A stretch of DNA of 64,000 nt from Escherichia coli (GTDB lineage Bacteria; Pseudomonadota; Gammaproteobacteria; Enterobacterales; Enterobacteriaceae): assembly GCF_003790525.1 (NCBI RefSeq), contig NZ_CP033635.1; one strand, 5' to 3'. Below, piece by piece: positions 3,271-26,757 of the stretch. Below the pieces are notes generated by a model. It did not search any database, was not told the origin of the DNA, and saw only the letters and a program-made list of their open reading frames with translations. The position numbers and the translations under genes are program-made. Position 1 is the stretch's first letter; every line of letters begins with the position of its first letter.

Positions 3271-4062
3271 ATGGGTAAACTCACGGGCAAGACAGCACTG
3301 ATTACGGGCGCATTGCAGGGAATTGGCGAAGGAATTGCCAGAACTTTTGCGCGTCATGGCGCAAACCTAATCTTGCTGGATATCTCCCCTGAGATCGAAA
3401 AGCTGGCGGACGAACTGTGTGGTCGTGGTCATCGCTGTACGGCGGTTGTCGCCGATGTGCGTGACCCGGCGTCGGTCGCCGCAGCTATCAAGCGTGCGAA
3501 GGAAAAAGAAGGGCGCATTGATATCCTGGTGAATAACGCAGGCGTTTGTCGTCTGGGAAGTTTCCTCGATATGAGCGATGAAGATCGCGATTTCCATATT
3601 GATATCAATATAAAAGGCGTATGGAACGTCACGAAGGCGGTGTTGCCGGAGATGATTGCCCGCAAAGATGGTCGCATTGTGATGATGTCTTCAGTCACTG
3701 GCGATATGGTGGCCGATCCGGGTGAAACGGCGTATGCCTTAACGAAAGCGGCGATTGTTGGCCTGACTAAATCGCTGGCGGTGGAGTACGCGCAGTCTGG
3801 TATTCGCGTTAACGCCATCTGCCCCGGATACGTTCGCACGCCAATGGCGGAAAGCATTGCCCGCCAGTCGAACCCGGAAGATCCAGAATCGGTGCTGACT
3901 GAAATGGCGAAAGCAATCCCGATGCGTCGCCTCGCCGATCCGCTGGAAGTCGGCGAACTGGCGGCCTTCCTCGCATCGGATGAATCCAGCTATTTAACCG
4001 GTACACAGAATGTGATTGATGGCGGCAGCACACTGCCGGAGACGGTTAGCGTCGGCATCTGA
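3271..4062 (+). CDS. ucpA: Short-chain dehydrogenase/reductase (furfural resistance oxidoreductase)
   Basis: 263 aa from MGKLTGKTALITGALQGIGEGIA... with Rossmann TGxxxGIG motif; internal ATG of track ORF 3205..4062. Confidence 0.9.
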   Translation: MGKLTGKTALITGALQGIGEGIARTFARHGANLILLDISPEIEKLADELCGRGHRCTAVVADVRDPASVAAAIKRAKEKEGRIDILVNNAGVCRLGSFLDMSDEDRDFHIDINIKGVWNVTKAVLPEMIARKDGRIVMMSSVTGDMVADPGETAYALTKAAIVGLTKSLAVEYAQSGIRVNAICPGYVRTPMAESIARQSNPEDPESVLTEMAKAIPMRRLADPLEVGELAAFLASDESSYLTGTQNVIDGGSTLPETVSVGI

Positions 4063-4219
4063 TTCACCTCTGTTTCCTCCCTGCATTTGTGGGGAGGATT
4101 TCGTCTTATTCCCTTTTCAACTTCCAAATCACCAAACGGTATATAAAACCGTTACTCCTTTCACGTCCGTTATAAATATGATGGCTATTAGAAAGTCATT
4201 TAATTAATAAGGGTGCGCA

Positions 4220-5236
4220 ATGGCCGTTAACTTACTGAAAAAGAACTCACTCGCGCTGGTCGCTTCTCTGCTGCTGGCGGGCCATGTACAGGCAACGGAA
4301 CTGCTGAACAGTTCTTATGACGTCTCCCGCGAGCTGTTTGCCGCCCTGAATCCGCCGTTTGAGCAACAATGGGCAAAAGATAACGGCGGCGACAAACTGA
4401 CGATAAAACAATCTCATGCCGGATCATCAAAACAGGCGCTGGCGATTTTACAGGGCTTAAAAGCCGACGTTGTCACTTATAACCAGGTGACCGACGTACA
4501 AATCCTGCACGATAAAGGCAAGCTGATCCCGGCCGACTGGCAGTCGCGCCTGCCGAATAATAGCTCGCCGTTCTACTCCACCATGGGTTTCCTGGTACGT
4601 AAGGGCAACCCGAAGAATATCCACGACTGGAACGATCTGGTGCGCTCCGACGTGAAGCTGATTTTCCCGAACCCAAAAACCTCCGGTAACGCGCGTTATA
4701 CCTATCTGGCGGCATGGGGCGCAGCGGATAAAGCTGACGGTGGCGACAAAGCCAAAACCGAACAGTTTATGACCCAGTTCCTGAAAAACGTTGAAGTGTT
4801 CGATACTGGCGGTCGTGGCGCGACCACCACTTTTGCCGAGCGCGGCCTGGGCGATGTGCTGATCAGCTTCGAGTCGGAAGTGAACAACATCCGCAAACAG
4901 TATGAAGCGCAGGGCTTTGAAGTGGTGATTCCGAAAACCAATATTCTGGCGGAATTCCCGGTGGCGTGGGTCGATAAAAACGTGCAGGCCAACGGTACGG
5001 AAAAAGCAGCAAAAGCTTACCTGAACTGGCTCTACAGCCCGCAGGCGCAAACCATCATCACCGACTATTACTACCGCGTAAATAACCCGGAGGTGATGGA
5101 CAAACTGAAAGACAAATTCCCGCAGACCGAACTGTTCCGCGTGGAAGACAAATTTGGCTCCTGGCCGGAAGTGATGAAAACCCACTTCACCAGCGGCGGC
5201 GAGTTAGACAAGCTGTTAGCGGCGGGGCGTAACTGA
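4220..5236 (+). CDS. cysP: Thiosulfate/sulfate ABC transporter periplasmic binding protein
   Basis: 338-aa ORF with signal peptide; first gene of the cysPUWAM cluster. Confidence 0.95.
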
Positions 5237-6069
5237 TGTTTGCAGTTTCATCAAGACGCGTGCTGCCGGGCTTTACCTTAAGCCTCGGCACCAGTCTGCT
5301 GTTTGTTTGCCTGATTTTGCTGCTGCCGCTCTCCGCGCTGGTGATGCAGCTCTCTGAGATGAGCTGGGCGCAGTACTGGGAGGTGATCACCAACCCGCAG
5401 GTGGTCGCAGCCTATAAAGTGACGCTGCTGTCGGCGTTTGTCGCGTCGATTTTTAACGGCGTTTTCGGTCTGCTGATGGCGTGGATCTTAACCCGCTATC
5501 GCTTTCCGGGCCGCACGCTGCTTGATGCGCTGATGGATTTACCCTTTGCGCTGCCAACGGCAGTCGCCGGTTTAACGCTGGCCTCGCTCTTTTCCGTGAA
5601 CGGTTTTTACGGTGAATGGCTGGCGAAGTTTGATATCAAAGTCACCTATACCTGGCTGGGGATCGCGGTGGCGATGGCCTTTACCAGCATTCCGTTTGTG
5701 GTGCGTACCGTGCAGCCGGTGCTGGAAGAGTTAGGCCCGGAATATGAAGAAGCGGCGGAAACGCTTGGCGCAACGCGCTGGCAGAGTTTCTGCAAAGTGG
5801 TGCTGCCGGAACTTTCTCCGGCGCTGGTGGCGGGCGTGGCGCTGTCGTTTACCCGTAGTCTTGGTGAATTTGGCGCGGTGATTTTCATCGCCGGGAACAT
5901 TGCCTGGAAGACGGAAGTGACGTCGCTGATGATTTTTGTTCGCTTACAGGAGTTTGATTACCCGGCGGCGAGCGCGATTGCTTCGGTGATCCTCGCGGCA
6001 TCCCTGTTGCTGCTGTTCTCAATTAACACTCTGCAAAGTCGCTTTGGTCGGCGTGTGGTAGGTCATTAA
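5236..6069 (+). CDS. cysU: Sulfate/thiosulfate ABC transporter permease
   Basis: 277-aa polytopic membrane protein; start overlaps the cysP stop (ATGA-type coupling). Confidence 0.95.
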   Translation: MFAVSSRRVLPGFTLSLGTSLLFVCLILLLPLSALVMQLSEMSWAQYWEVITNPQVVAAYKVTLLSAFVASIFNGVFGLLMAWILTRYRFPGRTLLDALMDLPFALPTAVAGLTLASLFSVNGFYGEWLAKFDIKVTYTWLGIAVAMAFTSIPFVVRTVQPVLEELGPEYEEAAETLGATRWQSFCKVVLPELSPALVAGVALSFTRSLGEFGAVIFIAGNIAWKTEVTSLMIFVRLQEFDYPAASAIASVILAASLLLLFSINTLQSRFGRRVVGH

Positions 6070-6944
6070 TGGCGGAAGTGACACAATTGAAGCGTTATGA
6101 CGCGCGCCCGATTAACTGGGGCAAATGGTTTCTGATTGGCATCGGGATGCTGGTTTCGGCGTTCATCCTGCTGGTGCCGATGATTTACATCTTCGTGCAG
6201 GCGTTCAGCAAAGGGCTGATGCCGGTTTTACAGAATCTGGCCGATCCGGACATGCTGCACGCCATCTGGCTGACGGTGATGATTGCGCTGATTGCCGTGC
6301 CGGTGAACCTGGTGTTCGGCATTCTGCTGGCCTGGCTGGTGACGCGCTTTAACTTCCCCGGACGCCAGTTGCTGCTGACGCTGCTGGACATTCCGTTTGC
6401 CGTGTCGCCGGTGGTTGCCGGTCTGGTGTATCTGCTGTTTTACGGCTCTAACGGCCCGCTCGGTGGCTGGCTGGATGAACATAATCTGCAAATTATGTTC
6501 TCCTGGCCGGGAATGGTGCTGGTCACCATCTTCGTGACCTGTCCGTTTGTGGTGCGCGAGCTGGTGCCGGTAATGTTAAGCCAGGGCAGCCAGGAAGACG
6601 AAACAGCGATTTTGCTGGGCGCATCTGGCTGGCAGATGTTCCGTCGCGTCACGCTGCCGAACATCCGCTGGGCGCTGCTTTATGGCGTGGTGCTGACCAA
6701 CGCCCGCGCGATTGGCGAGTTTGGTGCGGTGTCGGTAGTTTCCGGCTCGATTCGCGGCGAAACACTTTCGCTGCCGTTACAGATTGAATTGCTGGAGCAG
6801 GACTACAACACCGTCGGCTCCTTTACCGCTGCCGCGTTGTTGACGCTGATGGCGATTATCACCCTGTTTTTAAAGAGTATGTTGCAGTGGCGTCTGGAGA
6901 ATCAGGAAAAACGCGCGCAGCAGGAGGAACATCATGAGCATTGA
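6069..6944 (+). CDS. cysW: Sulfate/thiosulfate ABC transporter permease
   Basis: 291-aa membrane protein; start overlaps the cysU stop. Confidence 0.95.
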
Positions 6945-8031
6945 GATTGCCAATATTAAGAAGTCTTTTGGTCGCACCCAGGTGCTGAACGATATCTCAC
7001 TGGATATTCCTTCTGGTCAGATGGTCGCGTTGCTGGGGCCGTCCGGTTCCGGGAAAACCACGCTGCTGCGGATTATCGCCGGGCTGGAGCATCAAACCAG
7101 CGGGCATATTCGCTTCCACGGCACCGACGTTAGCCGCCTGCATGCGCGCGACCGTAAAGTCGGTTTCGTGTTCCAGCATTACGCGTTGTTCCGCCATATG
7201 ACGGTATTCGACAATATCGCTTTTGGCCTGACGGTGCTACCGCGTCGCGAGCGCCCGAATGCGGCGGCGATCAAAGCGAAAGTGACAAAATTGCTGGAGA
7301 TGGTGCAGCTTGCCCATCTGGCAGACCGCTATCCTGCGCAGCTTTCCGGCGGCCAGAAACAGCGTGTGGCGCTGGCGCGCGCGCTGGCTGTAGAACCGCA
7401 AATTCTGCTGCTTGATGAACCGTTTGGCGCGCTGGATGCGCAGGTGCGTAAAGAGTTGCGTCGCTGGCTGCGTCAGTTACATGAAGAGCTGAAATTCACC
7501 AGCGTGTTTGTGACCCATGACCAGGAAGAAGCGACCGAAGTAGCCGATCGTGTAGTGGTGATGAGCCAGGGCAATATCGAGCAGGCTGATGCACCGGACC
7601 AGGTCTGGCGCGAACCAGCGACCCGTTTTGTACTCGAATTTATGGGCGAAGTTAACCGCCTGCAGGGAACCATTCGCGGCGGGCAGTTCCATGTTGGCGC
7701 ACATCGCTGGCCGCTGGGCTATACACCTGCGTATCAGGGGCCAGTGGATCTCTTCCTGCGTCCGTGGGAAGTGGATATCAGCCGCCGTACCAGCCTCGAT
7801 TCGCCGCTGCCGGTACAGGTACTGGAAGCCAGCCCGAAAGGCCACTACACCCAATTAGTCGTGCAGCCGCTGGGGTGGTACAACGAAGCGCTGACGGTCG
7901 TGATGCACGGCGACGACGCCCCGCAACGTGGCGAGCGTTTATTCGTTGGTCTGCAACATGCGCGGCTGTATAACGGCGACGAGCGTATTGAAACCCGCGA
8001 TGAGGAACTTGCTCTCGCACAAAGCGCCTGA
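6934..8031 (+). CDS. cysA: Sulfate/thiosulfate ABC transporter ATP-binding protein
   Basis: 365 aa with Walker [10 protein letters not shown] and ABC signature [15 protein letters not shown]. Confidence 0.95.
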
Positions 8032-8097
8032 TAGGTTGAGTGAATGTTAAACGCCCGGAGGCGCTTCCCGCGATCCGGGCTTTTTAATGGCAAGGTT

Positions 8098-8141
8098 TGT
8101 AACCTGTAGGTCTGATAAGACGCGCAAGCGTCGCATCAGGC
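8098..8141. repeat. REP (repetitive extragenic palindromic) element in the cysA-cysM intergenic region
   Basis: gtaacctgtaggtctgataagacgcgcaagcgtcgcatcaggca, whose reverse complement fits the GCCTGATGCG...CTTATCAG..CTAC REP pattern. Confidence 0.6.
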
Positions 8142-8164
8142 AACACCACGTATGGACAGAGATC

Positions 8165-9076
8165 GTGAGTACATTAGAACAAACAATTGGCAATACGCCT
8201 CTGGTGAAGTTGCAGCGAATGGGGCCGAATAACGGCAGTGAAGTCTGGTTGAAACTGGAAGGCAATAACCCGGCAGGTTCGGTAAAAGATCGTGCGGCAC
8301 TTTCGATGATCGTCGAGGCGGAAAAGCGCGGCGAGATTAAACCGGGTGATGTGTTGATCGAAGCCACCAGTGGTAACACCGGCATTGCGCTGGCAATGAT
8401 TGCCGCGCTTAAAGGCTATCGCATGAAATTGCTGATGCCCGACAACATGAGCCAGGAACGCCGTGCGGCAATGCGTGCCTACGGTGCGGAACTGATTCTG
8501 GTCACCAAAGAGCAGGGCATGGAAGGTGCGCGCGATCTGGCGCTGGAGATGGCCAATCGTGGTGAAGGAAAGCTGCTCGATCAGTTCAATAATCCTGATA
8601 ATCCCTTCGCCCATTACACCACCACCGGGCCGGAAATCTGGCAGCAGACTGGCGGGCGCATTACCCATTTTGTCTCCAGCATGGGAACAACCGGCACTAT
8701 CACCGGCGTTTCACGCTTTATGCGCGAACAATCCAAACCGGTGACCATTGTTGGCCTGCAGCCGGAAGAAGGCAGCAGTATTCCGGGCATTCGCCGCTGG
8801 CCTGCGGAATATCTGCCGGGGATTTTCAACGCTTCGCTGGTGGATGAGGTGCTGGATATTCATCAGCGCGATGCGGAAAACACCATGCGCGAACTGGCAG
8901 TGCGGGAAGGAATATTCTGTGGCGTCAGCTCCGGCGGCGCGGTTGCCGGAGCACTGCGGGTGGCAAAAGCTAACCCCGGCGCGGTGGTTGTGGCGATCAT
9001 CTGCGATCGCGGCGATCGTTACCTTTCTACCGGGGTGTTTGGGGAAGAGCATTTTAGCCAGGGGGCGGGGATTTAA
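8165..9076 (+). CDS. cysM: Cysteine synthase B (O-acetylserine sulfhydrylase B)
   Basis: GTG start at 8165 gives 303 aa (VSTLEQTIGNTPLVKLQRMGP...), PLP-enzyme fold; the track ORF from 8087 is a 5' extension through the REP. Confidence 0.9.
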   Translation: MSTLEQTIGNTPLVKLQRMGPNNGSEVWLKLEGNNPAGSVKDRAALSMIVEAEKRGEIKPGDVLIEATSGNTGIALAMIAALKGYRMKLLMPDNMSQERRAAMRAYGAELILVTKEQGMEGARDLALEMANRGEGKLLDQFNNPDNPFAHYTTTGPEIWQQTGGRITHFVSSMGTTGTITGVSRFMREQSKPVTIVGLQPEEGSSIPGIRRWPAEYLPGIFNASLVDEVLDIHQRDAENTMRELAVREGIFCGVSSGGAVAGALRVAKANPGAVVVAIICDRGDRYLSTGVFGEEHFSQGAGI

Positions 9077-23359: not shown

Positions 23360-24193
23360 ATGTATCAGGCTCAGTTTTCTCATAACCCACTGTATTGCGT
23401 AGATATTATCAAGACTTATAAACCTGATTTCACGCCACGAGTGGCCTTTATTTTAGGTTCCGGGCTGGGCGCGCTGGCCGATCAGATTGAGAACGCGGTC
23501 GCAATTTCCTACGAAAAGCTGCCTGGGTTCCCGGTAAGTACCGTACACGGTCATGCGGGTGAGCTGGTGCTGGGTTATCTCCAGGGGGTGCCAGTGGCGT
23601 GCATGAAAGGTCGCGGACATTTCTACGAAGGTCGTGGGATGACCATCATGACGGATGCAATCCGTACCTTTAAGTTGCTGGGCTGCGAGTTGCTGTTCTG
23701 CACCAATGCGGCTGGCTCACTGCGTCCTGAAGTGGGGGCCGGCAGTCTGGTCGCATTGAAAGATCACATCAACACCATGCCGGGAACGCCGATGGTGGGT
23801 CTTAATGATGAACGTTTTGGTGAGCGCTTCTTCTCGCTGGCAAATACCTACGATGCGGAATACCGCGCACTGTTACAAAAAGTGGCGAAAGAAGAGGGGT
23901 TCCCTCTGACGGAGGGCGTGTTCGTCTCGTATCCGGGTCCGAATTTCGAGACTGCGGCGGAAATTCGCATGATGCAAATTATTGGTGGGGATGTTGTTGG
24001 TATGTCTGTGGTGCCTGAGGTTATTTCTGCTCGCCATTGCGAACTTAAAGTCGTTGCGGTCTCTGCGATTACCAACATGGCGGAAGGTCTGAGTGACGTG
24101 AAGCTTTCTCATGCCCAAACGCTGGCAGCAGCGGAACTCTCAAAGCAAAACTTTATTAATCTTATTTGCGGCTTTCTGCGCAAAATTGCCTGA
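23360..24193 (+). CDS. xapA: Purine nucleoside phosphorylase II (xanthosine phosphorylase)
   Basis: 277-aa ORF matching XapA/PNP family. Confidence 0.95.
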   Translation: MYQAQFSHNPLYCVDIIKTYKPDFTPRVAFILGSGLGALADQIENAVAISYEKLPGFPVSTVHGHAGELVLGYLQGVPVACMKGRGHFYEGRGMTIMTDAIRTFKLLGCELLFCTNAAGSLRPEVGAGSLVALKDHINTMPGTPMVGLNDERFGERFFSLANTYDAEYRALLQKVAKEEGFPLTEGVFVSYPGPNFETAAEIRMMQIIGGDVVGMSVVPEVISARHCELKVVAVSAITNMAEGLSDVKLSHAQTLAAAELSKQNFINLICGFLRKIA

Positions 24194-24253
24194 GTAAAAC
24201 AACAATAAACGGCCTCACTGAGTGAGGCCATATGATGCGACAAGGAAACGATT

Positions 24254-25510
24254 ATGAGCATCGCTTTGCGCTTAAAGGTAATGTCCTTTTTGCAATATTT
24301 TATCTGGGGGAGCTGGCTGGTTACCCTCGGTTCTTACATGATTAATACCCTTCATTTCACCGGCGCTAATGTTGGCATGGTTTACAGTTCCAAAGGGATC
24401 GCCGCGATTATTATGCCTGGTATAATGGGGATCATCGCAGACAAATGGCTGCGTGCAGAACGTGCATACATGCTGTGTCACCTGGTGTGTGCAGGCGTAC
24501 TTTTTTATGCGGCATCCGTAACTGATCCGGATATGATGTTTTGGGTGATGTTAGTCAATGCGATGGCGTTTATGCCGACTATTGCGTTATCGAACAGCGT
24601 CTCTTATTCCTGTCTTGCCCAGGCAGGGCTTGACCCGGTGACCGCTTTCCCGCCCATTCGCGTTTTTGGTACTGTGGGGTTCATTGTCGCCATGTGGGCA
24701 GTAAGCCTGCTGCATCTGGAATTGAGTAGTCTGCAACTGTATATCGCGTCCGGTGCGTCATTGCTGCTGTCGGCTTATGCGCTGACTTTGCCGAAGATTC
24801 CGGTTGCGGAGAAAAAAGCGACTACATCGCTTGCCAGCAAGCTGGGCCTGGATGCCTTCGTGCTGTTTAAAAATCCACGCATGGCTATCTTTTTCCTCTT
24901 CGCCATGATGCTGGGTGCGGTGCTGCAAATTACCAACGTTTTTGGCAACCCGTTCCTGCATGATTTCGCCCGTAATCCTGAGTTTGCTGATAGCTTCGTG
25001 GTGAAATACCCGTCCATTTTACTGTCAGTTTCACAGATGGCTGAAGTCGGTTTCATTCTGACGATACCGTTCTTTTTGAAGCGTTTCGGTATTAAAACCG
25101 TCATGCTGATGAGTATGGTGGCGTGGACGCTGCGCTTTGGCTTCTTTGCCTATGGCGACCCATCACCAACCGGGTTTATTTTGCTGTTGCTGTCGATGAT
25201 TGTTTACGGTTGTGCATTCGATTTCTTCAATATTTCTGGTTCGGTCTTTGTCGAACAGGAAGTTGATTCCAGCATTCGTGCCAGCGCCCAGGGCCTTTTT
25301 ATGACGATGGTAAATGGCGTCGGCGCATGGGTTGGCTCGATTCTGAGCGGTATGGCAGTGGATTACTTCTCGGTGGATGGCGTAAAAGATTGGCATACCA
25401 TTTGGCTGATGTTTGCAGGGTATGCTCTTTTCCTCGCAGTGATATTTTTCTTTGGGTTTAAATATAACCATGACCCTGAAAAGATAACGCATCGTTCAGT
25501 TACACATTAA
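24254..25510 (+). CDS. xapB: Xanthosine:H+ symporter (MFS, NHS family)
   Basis: 418-aa 12-TM transporter matching XapB. Confidence 0.95.
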   Translation: MSIALRLKVMSFLQYFIWGSWLVTLGSYMINTLHFTGANVGMVYSSKGIAAIIMPGIMGIIADKWLRAERAYMLCHLVCAGVLFYAASVTDPDMMFWVMLVNAMAFMPTIALSNSVSYSCLAQAGLDPVTAFPPIRVFGTVGFIVAMWAVSLLHLELSSLQLYIASGASLLLSAYALTLPKIPVAEKKATTSLASKLGLDAFVLFKNPRMAIFFLFAMMLGAVLQITNVFGNPFLHDFARNPEFADSFVVKYPSILLSVSQMAEVGFILTIPFFLKRFGIKTVMLMSMVAWTLRFGFFAYGDPSPTGFILLLLSMIVYGCAFDFFNISGSVFVEQEVDSSIRASAQGLFMTMVNGVGAWVGSILSGMAVDYFSVDGVKDWHTIWLMFAGYALFLAVIFFFGFKYNHDPEKITHRSVTH

Positions 25511-25762
25511 AAGGATTCGCAGCTCTGTTCCTTGGGGCTGCTTTTATGATAAAGGTTAATTAGTGAAAGATATTTTATTTTCTTCTGGCGTTGGTTTTGG
25601 CATTGGTGCTTTGTTTACAATCGTGCGATTACCTATTCCTGTTCCAAATGTATTGCCGGGTATATTATCCATCGTGTTTATGTATGTCGGATATCTGGTG
25701 GTGAAATACTTTATGCCATGATAATTTAATACGATATATTTTTTTATATGGAGCACTTAATT

Positions 25763-26647
25763 ATGGAACGCGTATATAGAACAGATCTTAAGTTGCTCCG
25801 TTATTTTCTTGCCGTAGCGGAAGAGTTGCATTTTGGTCGCGCAGCAGCGCGTTTAAATATGTCTCAGCCTCCGCTCAGTATTCATATTAAAGAGCTGGAA
25901 AATCAACTCGGCACGCAGCTTTTTATTCGCCATTCGCGCAGCGTCGTACTGACACACGCGGGCAAAATCTTGATGGAAGAATCGCGTCGATTGCTGGTGA
26001 ATGCAAATAATGTATTGGCTCGGGTTGAACAAATAGGTCGGGGAGAAGCAGGGCGGATTGAACTCGGGGTTGTGGGAACGGCAATGTGGGGACGGATGCG
26101 CCCGGTTATGCGGCGATTCCTTAGAGAAAATCCTAACGTTGAAGTTCTGTTTCGCGAAAAGATGCCCGCGATGCAAATGGCCTTGCTGGAACGCCGCGAA
26201 CTTGATGCCGGGATCTGGCGAATGGCGACAGAACCACCGACTGGTTTTACCAGCTTACGGTTGCATGAATCGGCGTTTCTGGTGGCGATGCCTGAAGAGC
26301 ATCATCTCTCATCATTTTCCACCGTCCCGCTGGAAGCGCTACGTGACGAGTATTTCGTTACAATGCCGCCCGTGTACACTGACTGGGATTTTTTGCAGCG
26401 AGTTTGCCAGCAGGTGGGATTTTCACCGGTTGTTATTCGCGAAGTTAATGAACCGCAAACGGTACTCGCCATGGTCAGTATGGGTATTGGTATCACATTG
26501 ATAGCGGACAGCTACGCGCAGATGAACTGGCCCGGTGTCATATTCCGTCCGCTCAAAGAACGCATCCCGGCAGACTTATATATTGTTTATGAAACGCAGC
26601 AGGTGACGCCCGCGCTGGTTAAACTGCTGGCGGCGTTGGCGCAGTAG
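25763..26647 (+). CDS. xapR: LysR-family activator of xapAB
   Basis: 294 aa from MERVYRTDLKLLRYFLAVAEELHFGRAAARLNMSQPPLSIHIKELE; the ORF could start at 25748 instead. Confidence 0.9.
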   Translation: MERVYRTDLKLLRYFLAVAEELHFGRAAARLNMSQPPLSIHIKELENQLGTQLFIRHSRSVVLTHAGKILMEESRRLLVNANNVLARVEQIGRGEAGRIELGVVGTAMWGRMRPVMRRFLRENPNVEVLFREKMPAMQMALLERRELDAGIWRMATEPPTGFTSLRLHESAFLVAMPEEHHLSSFSTVPLEALRDEYFVTMPPVYTDWDFLQRVCQQVGFSPVVIREVNEPQTVLAMVSMGIGITLIADSYAQMNWPGVIFRPLKERIPADLYIVYETQQVTPALVKLLAALAQ

Positions 26648-26665
26648 ATGAGAGGCACGGGAACT

Positions 26666-26705
26666 GCCGGACATAGTTGGTCTGATAAGCGAAGCGCATC
26701 AGGCA
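26666..26705. repeat. REP-like palindromic element between xapR and lysV
   Basis: gccggacatagttggtctgataagcgaagcgcatcaggca (CTGATAAG...GCATCAGGC core). Confidence 0.5.
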
Positions 26706-26726
26706 ATTTCGCAAATTGCAGATAGC

Positions 26727-26753
26727 AAAAAAGCGCCTTTAGGGCGCTTTTTT
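26727..26753. terminator. Bidirectional Rho-independent terminator shared by xapR and the val/lys tRNA operon
   Basis: aaaaaagcgcctttagggcgctttttt: GC stem with A-run and T-run on opposite sides. Confidence 0.65.
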
Positions 26754-26757
26754 ACAT

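Follow-up and report, generated by a model that had tools for sequence, protein, structure and literature searches.

Does the short spacer that separates xapB from xapR in Escherichia coli encode a protein and, if it does, what might that protein do? The question arose from a first-pass annotation of a 64,000-nt stretch of an E. coli genome (RefSeq assembly GCF_003790525.1, contig NZ_CP033635.1; hereafter the window), which had picked out a GTG-started 52-codon ORF in this spacer and had considered that it might just as well be a chance ORF in AT-rich DNA. We conclude that the ORF is almost certainly a genuine protein-coding gene, xapX, and propose, with less assurance, that its product serves the xanthosine module to which the neighboring genes belong.

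The xap locus of the window

The features of the locus are collected in Table 1. The frame opens with the GTG at 25563, runs for 52 codons and closes with a TGA at 25719–25721. Both its coordinates and the translation originally quoted for it, MKDILFSSGVGFGIGALFTIVRLPIPVPNVLPGILSIVFMYVGYLVVKYFMP, were reproduced, and the gene coordinates agree with its placement between xapB and xapR, on the same strand as both. The weak Shine-Dalgarno sequence noted at first pass is present as well, as an AGG at 25553–25555, 7 nt from the GTG. The top database match of the upstream neighbor carries the name xanthosine/proton symporter XapB.

Table 1. Features of the xap locus, in window coordinates
Feature	Position	Strand	Basis
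xapA (xanthosine phosphorylase), first gene of the cluster	23360..24193	+	ORF, K-12 comparison, PGAP annotation of the homologous region
xapB (NHS-family xanthosine/H+ symporter), directly 5' of xapX	24254..25510	+	ORF, homology, PGAP
Hairpin 25519–25541 followed by TTTTAT, 3' of xapB	25519..25547	+	Consensus scan, folding
Shine-Dalgarno-like AAGG, 7 nt before the GTG	25552..25555	+	Sequence, orthologue comparison
xapX, 52-codon gene for a predicted two-helix membrane protein (XapX domain, TIGR03510)	25563..25721	+	Conservation, HMM, AlphaFold2
Candidate xapR promoter: -35 ATGCCA, 16-nt spacer, -10 TATATT	25713..25740	+	Consensus match only
xapR (LysR-type activator of xapAB), starting 41 nt past the xapX stop	25763..26647	+	ORF, homology

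On the far side of xapR, the gap to tRNA-Lys (26648–26757) shows no RtT match at E ≤ 1 in the window. The tRNA gene starts 110 nt past the xapR stop here, compared to 265 nt in K-12, where PGAP annotates an RtT sRNA element in the corresponding gap.

Conservation of the frame between xapB and xapR

The mere existence of the ORF carries little weight. When spacers were simulated with a first-order Markov model and matched to the real spacer in length and composition, a complete ORF of 52 codons or more turned up in 15% of them if one strand was read and in 18% if both were, and a 66-codon antisense ORF overlaps xapX; ORF presence alone is thus within what chance would produce, and the caution voiced at first pass, that length proves nothing, was justified. 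The low GC content of the frame (38%), the lack of an entry in the curated K-12 annotation and the occurrence of xap clusters without xapX would also sit comfortably with a chance ORF in an AT-rich spacer. The evidence that goes beyond chance is the conservation of the frame and the membership of its product in a protein family, and on these grounds we reject the chance reading, which we regard as scarcely tenable.

TBLASTN conservation and the pattern of synonymous and nonsynonymous substitutions, both of which the first-pass annotation had proposed as checks, speak for a gene. A scan for relatives, limited to one genome per species, returned 13 loci, and in ten of these, as in K-12, tblastn finds the arrangement xapA-xapB-xapX-xapR in the same order and orientation; the genera concerned are Escherichia, Pseudocitrobacter, Entomohabitans, Phytobacter, Chimaeribacter, Citrobacter, Limnobaculum and Pragia. 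We compared 12 xapX orthologues, window included, from eight enterobacterial genera. Every one of them has exactly 52 codons, opens at the homologous position with either GTG or ATG, and carries an aagg/ggag/aggag-type motif 6–10 nt before the start, a constancy of length and start that is hard to reconcile with chance. The spacers on either side diverge faster and have an indel, whereas the ORF has none.

Substitutions within the frame show that xapX is under strong purifying selection. The dN/dS between genera is 0.05–0.11, and of the columns that vary in the alignment, 20 fall at first, 10 at second and 46 at third codon positions. Between the window and K-12, which are separated by a dS of 0.21, 7 of 156 sites differ and all seven changes are synonymous (P ~6e-5, assuming that changes fall in proportion to site numbers), so that the two XapX proteins are identical. 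A frame broken in related E. coli, which had been named as grounds for dismissing the ORF, is not what the genomes contain: xapX is matched in 4075 of 5426 complete E. coli genomes, with coverage of at least 80% and a full-length, ungapped frame in 4063 of these carriers, and 59 of 60 evenly spaced matches are full-length, ungapped and annotated as CDS. The count for xapB is nearly the same (4088/5426).

The least credible alternative, to which we give next to no weight, is that the 66-codon antisense ORF (25556..25756, minus strand) is the real gene, being the longer of the two frames (66 versus 52 codons), or that the region encodes a small RNA: the antisense frame contains stop codons in every genus outside Escherichia, variable columns are most numerous at third positions of the plus-strand codons, and a comparison of the spacer with Rfam returned nothing at E ≤ 1.

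Family membership and annotation status

The ORF had been described as unannotated. This holds for the curated K-12 record NC_000913.3, which has no feature between xapR (b2405) and xapB (b2406), but not for PGAP-annotated RefSeq genomes, nor with regard to the NCBIfam model TIGR03510 ("XapX domain"). PGAP places the name "DUF1427 family protein" on xapX in 29 of 29 and in 59 of 60 evenly sampled E. coli RefSeq genomes, a resequenced MG1655 carries the annotation as WP_000651752.1, and 1000 or more contigs carry the identical protein, named DUF1427 or XapX. The gene is therefore already catalogued, as a typical member of the uncharacterised, predicted XapX/DUF1427 family.

Against TIGR03510 the window protein scores 64.2 bits (E = 5.8e-18), far above the cut-off of 27.8, a curated-HMM result at odds with a chance ORF; residues 4–50 align to positions 2–48 of the 49 in the profile. 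It shares with that family a hydrophobic product of ~50 aa and a position between xapB and xapR, and we saw no difference from it. XapX is the eponymous and, by name, founding member of the family, whose model we take to have been defined on the E. coli xapX ORF itself. The family is broad. A full HMMER search of 1.84 billion representative proteins returned 33 matches at E ≤ 1e-3, and a profile search retrieved 1331 or more sequence clusters, whose named sources range over Enterobacterales, Afipia, Pandoraea, Flavobacteriaceae, Chitinophagia and Thermoanaerobacteraceae; the extension of homologues to other phyla again counts against a chance ORF. Members consist of a single domain and span 47–108 residues, with 52 the commonest length. 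The family is large, and E. coli, a tractable organism, is the easiest place in which to assign it a function.

The XapX-domain family overlaps Pfam DUF1427 (PF07235), and the correspondence is partial. The window protein falls below the PF07235 gathering threshold of 27.1 bits and gives no match to any Pfam model even at E ≤ 10, so the name DUF1427 fits it more loosely than the name XapX does. Among 31 XapX relatives, 23 reach PF07235 weakly (best E 2.6e-6), and one relative scored 23.9 bits, below 27.1. The Pfam model is 84 positions long, of which the XapX hairpin would fill only positions 4–52, and it was built on alpha- and beta-proteobacterial proteins of 77–85 residues with a C-terminal tail, compared to the 52 residues of XapX. 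The only literature on DUF1427 that we found is one 2005 domain survey, which describes the domain as plant-associated and of unknown function (PMC554113), a description that does not suit the enteric XapX.

Predicted structure of XapX

AlphaFold2 models XapX as a helix at residues 2–20, a loop at 21–30 and a second helix at 31–50 (mean pLDDT 86), in agreement with the two hydrophobic segments first read from the translation. The model points to a helical-hairpin membrane protein, with two hydrophobic helices of ~19–20 residues that would insert into the membrane. The predicted helices carry small residues (G9/G11/G13/G15 in the first; G33, S36 and G43 in the second) and are joined by the Leu-Pro-Ile-Pro-x-Pro (LPIPxP) turn of the family. 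Across 31 aligned family sequences, P24 and P28 are invariant, and conservation reaches 90% or more at G11, G15, L23, P26, G33, I37 and G43; the window protein carries every one of these residues. Lysine and arginine together average 2.0 and 1.7 per protein at the two termini and 0.8 in the loop, from which, by the positive-inside rule, both termini probably face the cytoplasm. Searches by sequence and by fold found no solved structure of any XapX relative.

Class II phage holins resemble XapX in being small and having two hydrophobic helices, three distant XapX relatives match Phage_holin_3_3 weakly (best E 2.6e-4), and some relatives lie on phage-like contigs. Class II holins, however, sit in lysis cassettes beside an endolysin, whereas the phage-like XapX copies sit among replication and recombination genes. 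We rejected a holin assignment for XapX, whose neighbors are xapB and xapR, which has no Pfam holin match and for which a search of PHROGs with the 31 relatives gave one spurious match.

On the phage-like contigs, the genes next to those with XapX domains encode RecA, MazG, PD-(D/E)XK, RuvC and DNA polymerase. The haloarchaeal tailed viruses HCTV-1 and HCTV-16 contain a weak tblastn match (42% identity, E 2e-3) beside a clamp-loader gene. The phage records behind these observations are KC292029.1, NC_021330.1 and MZ334524.1.

Linkage of xapX to xapB

In all 12 Enterobacterales loci examined, xapX lies directly 3' of xapB. The Budviciaceae, in which the order is xapA-xapB-xapX-deoC-xapR, have a deoC-like gene between xapX and xapR, which indicates that xapX is tied to xapB rather than to xapR. 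This deoC-like gene (deoxyribose-phosphate aldolase), named by eye from its translation, measures ~880 bp in Limnobaculum and Pragia. At one Budviciaceae locus (6144–6949) it falls into two ORFs that overlap, one of 145 aa and the other of 150 aa, and may be frameshifted or mis-sequenced there.

The hairpin reported at first pass to follow xapB was found, with a stem region at 25519–25541 followed by TTTTAT, and its fold is unremarkable (-13.1 kcal/mol, z = -1.1 relative to shuffled sequences). The stem is kept through compensatory changes in K-12, Citrobacter and Phytobacter. The terminator consensus, a stem followed by a U-tract, is matched by the E. coli hairpin, and the U-tract is missing in four genera, namely in Chimaeribacter, Citrobacter On2M and the Budviciaceae. 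In Entomohabitans, where the gap between xapB and xapX is 34 nt, the hairpin itself is absent. From its sequence the element looks like a weak intrinsic terminator, an attenuator or an RNA-stabilising hairpin.

From the linkage of xapX to xapB, the short Entomohabitans gap and the patchy U-tract we infer read-through from xapAB, and consider it fairly likely that xapX is part of the xanthosine-induced transcript. The xapA-xapB transcript would pass a leaky hairpin and carry xapX along; the terminator-like hairpin between xapB and xapX in E. coli is the point that speaks against this reading.

Events that remove the cluster can take xapX with them. E. coli RM14721 lacks part of yfeN, xapA, xapB, xapX and the 5' end of xapR, and has an IS1 in their place. 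Elsewhere, FDAARGOS_944 retains just the last 49 nt of xapX, E. coli TUM9975 has an IS903B inserted in xapB, and ~25% of complete E. coli genomes are without both xapB and xapX.

The xap cluster (window 23360–26647) also exists in E. coli as two deeply divergent alleles, with a bimodal distribution of identity to the window: 1202–1529 genomes at 99% or more, and ~2400–2560 at ~94–96%. XapA of Pseudocitrobacter is 97.1% identical to that of the window, and XapA of K-12 is 96.8% identical. The two alleles, the patchy presence and the closeness of Pseudocitrobacter fit both the repeated horizontal transfer described for xapR/xapA (PMC2395238) and the accessory-gene status reported elsewhere (PMC9602453).

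Lineages without xapX and distant relatives

Klebsiella huaxiensis, Enterobacter and C. freundii have an intact xapA-xapB-xapR with a xapB-xapR spacer of 67–100 nt, and tblastn finds no XapX-like sequence in them at E ≤ 10. These lineages share the neighborhood yfeH-yfeR-...-xapA-xapB-xapR-tRNAs-gltX. In a neighbor-joining tree of XapB they are nested inside clades that carry xapX, a pattern that calls for two or more independent losses of the gene. Because XapB is kept without XapX in three lineages, XapX is not an obligate XapB subunit; a search for XapB residues that track the loss returned none but one hypervariable loop column, and hence no co-adaptation signal.

The xapX-less spacer (contig positions ~4258–4357) consists of a GC-rich hairpin followed by sequence like that 3' of xapX in Citrobacter On2M ("gcaatgtggta..."), and it looks, from this resemblance, as if xapX had been excised near its start and stop codons.

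Outside the enteric xap clusters, the family occurs in varied surroundings, and we found no neighbor common to the distant members, which argues against a transporter-specific role for the family as a whole. In Afipia and Pandoraea, XapX-domain paralogues come as tandem pairs next to genes for formamidase/acetamidase, and no transporter lies nearby. Other distant relatives overlap an FMN-reductase gene or a phosphoribosyltransferase gene, and further contexts are CsoR/RlmH, redox genes in Thermoanaerobacter and phage-like replication modules.

The Afipia-like and Pandoraea paralogues (contig positions ~4001–4460) are 77–85 aa and 63–64 aa long, both with the motif PIPAPNVLGG. The pairs adjoin FmdA_AmdA genes and an AraC-FmdA fusion, a module common to alpha- and beta-proteobacteria.

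An uncultured Enterobacterales MAG has a distant XapX-like ORF among nupC-like and deoB-like genes (3702–8541), a second, looser association of XapX with nucleoside genes. The ORF is 47% identical to XapX and probably ~57 aa long, counted from MYDIIL. On one side of it lie yjdM and a gene for a CNT-family nucleoside transporter; on the other lies a 416-aa gene of the Metalloenzyme superfamily, whose size and family suggest phosphopentomutase (DeoB).

A possible role in the xanthosine module

We favor, as a probable account and not an assured one, that xapX is a real gene read through from xapAB and that its product is a non-essential inner-membrane accessory of the xanthosine module. XapX would sit in the inner membrane as a two-helix hairpin, and the faces of its helices that carry small residues would pack helix to helix, either with another XapX or with XapB, so as to assist the uptake and catabolism of xanthosine in a dispensable way. 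The tandem paralogue pairs, taken together with the conserved small-residue faces, suggest hairpin–hairpin packing as the basic activity. That XapX acts on XapB specifically is a tentative proposal, and one that we would sooner doubt than assume. Indirect evidence on it is mixed, with strict adjacency to xapB on one side and, on the other, three lineages that have XapB alone and no XapB residues that follow the loss.

E. coli has several small inner-membrane modulators of transporters, for which the pairs AcrZ-AcrB, KdpF-KdpABC, MgtS-MgtA/PitA, SgrT-PtsG and MntS-MntP are known. XapX likewise has ~50 residues, is hydrophobic, has a transporter gene as its same-strand neighbor and is dispensable in some lineages. 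The known modulators, however, are either soluble or span the membrane with a single helix, whereas two helices are predicted for XapX (2–20 and 31–50), and they have no sequence similarity to it, so the likeness is one of functional analogy and not of membership. Were the proposal true, XapX would be the first small protein with two helices to modulate an MFS nucleoside transporter, and if it modulates XapB or xanthosine catabolism, quantitative models of the three-gene xapABR switch would need a fourth component.

The main rival to an XapB-linked accessory is an autonomous protein, a self-associating, glycine-zipper-like hairpin that would, for example, form a small oligomeric pore or serve as a membrane-stress protein with no specific XapB partnership. 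On this view it would simply have been acquired by catabolic gene clusters. The breadth of the family (at least 1331 clusters), found beside unrelated genes, lends itself to this reading, as do the small residues conserved on both helices, the weak matches of some members to glycine-zipper or holin-type Pfam families and the retention of XapB without XapX in three lineages; the Afipia and Pandoraea tandem paralogues, with no transporter nearby, suggest oligomers built of hairpins. In the Enterobacterales, however, xapX is found only directly after xapB (12/12 loci) and disappears along with the cluster when this is lost or deleted, and a distant homologue turns up once more among nucleoside genes (nupC-like and deoB-like). 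An autonomous hairpin is accordingly possible, if on balance unlikely.

The 3' end of xapX and the control of xapR

The distance from the xapX stop to the xapR start is 40–51 nt in Escherichia, Pseudocitrobacter, Citrobacter and Phytobacter. The only promoter-like match of the spacer (-35 at 25713–25718, -10 at 25735–25740; 9 of 12 consensus matches) overlaps the last xapX codons, such that the ATGCCA at 25713 supplies both the "MP" codons of xapX and the -35 element. RNA polymerase (RpoN holoenzyme) has been reported to bind in vitro with a peak at U00096.2 position 2520564 (PMC8743547), and this maps 65 nt 5' of the xapR ATG, within xapX. Base composition varies with the same distance. In the genera where xapX abuts xapR (40–51 nt), the GC3 of xapX is 0.29–0.35 versus 0.55–0.60 for xapB, and it is near that of xapB when xapX and xapR lie 111 nt or more apart or have deoC between them; in the window, xapX has a GC of 38% and a GC3 of 34–35%, and xapA, xapB and xapR have a GC3 of 55–56%. 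Published work describes xapR as constitutive and not autoregulated (PMC7205307). A candidate xapR promoter that overlaps the 3' end of xapX can be inferred from these positions.

One could take the same observations further and suppose that xapX acts mainly in cis on xapR, as a uORF or as promoter-bearing DNA, with the peptide incidental. The close approach of its stop to xapR in Escherichia, Citrobacter and Phytobacter (40–51 nt), the promoter-like match and in vitro polymerase peak in its 3' end, and a GC3 that is low only where the two genes abut would all be expected then. Selection, however, acts on the amino acids (dN/dS 0.05–0.11, with all within-species differences synonymous), the family spans bacterial phyla, and xapX is equally conserved in the Budviciaceae, where the deoC-like gene splits it from xapR. 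An overlapping promoter is moreover compatible with coding, as an added role, and we consider an action mainly in cis very improbable.

The accessory reading of XapX can be extended to a dual use of its gene. Here the protein would tune XapB or handle a product of xanthosine breakdown, the AT-rich 3' end would be the constitutive xapR promoter, and XapX hairpins, single or in tandem, would form a recurring membrane module of nucleoside and amide catabolic clusters. We offer this combination as speculation, and as a whole it is quite unlikely to be right.

Hints of expression

Among the papers searched, none mentions xapX together with xapB, and none was found with direct data on expression or function. 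The ribosome-profiling supplement of Stringer 2021 has no coordinate in the spacer, and the names of the neighboring genes are absent from it as well, which makes it uninformative on xapX. Most small-protein screens stop at 50 residues; xapX, with its 52 codons, GTG start and need for xanthosine induction, may have been overlooked on this account, and the same features, in an operon silent without xanthosine, are probably the reasons why such screens missed it. A conserved gene present in ~75% of complete E. coli genomes is missing from the curated K-12 reference record.

Tetracycline ribosome profiling of K-12, which considered ATG codons only, yielded 360 selected intergenic start sites, one of which, M_ECK2399_2400_2520548, reads ATG CCA stop ("MP") with a TetRP of 4.28 and a control of 0 (PMC4909307). 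The site lies 49 nt 5' of xapR and, by our mapping, which agrees with the 40-nt gap between the two genes, is the in-frame Met51-Pro52-stop of xapX (2520548–2520540 of U00096.2, equivalent to window 25713–25721). The signal is weak and may reflect spurious initiation at an internal ATG preceded by the SD-like GGTGGTG. What it tells us is that ribosomes reach xapX RNA in uninduced cells, and just that.
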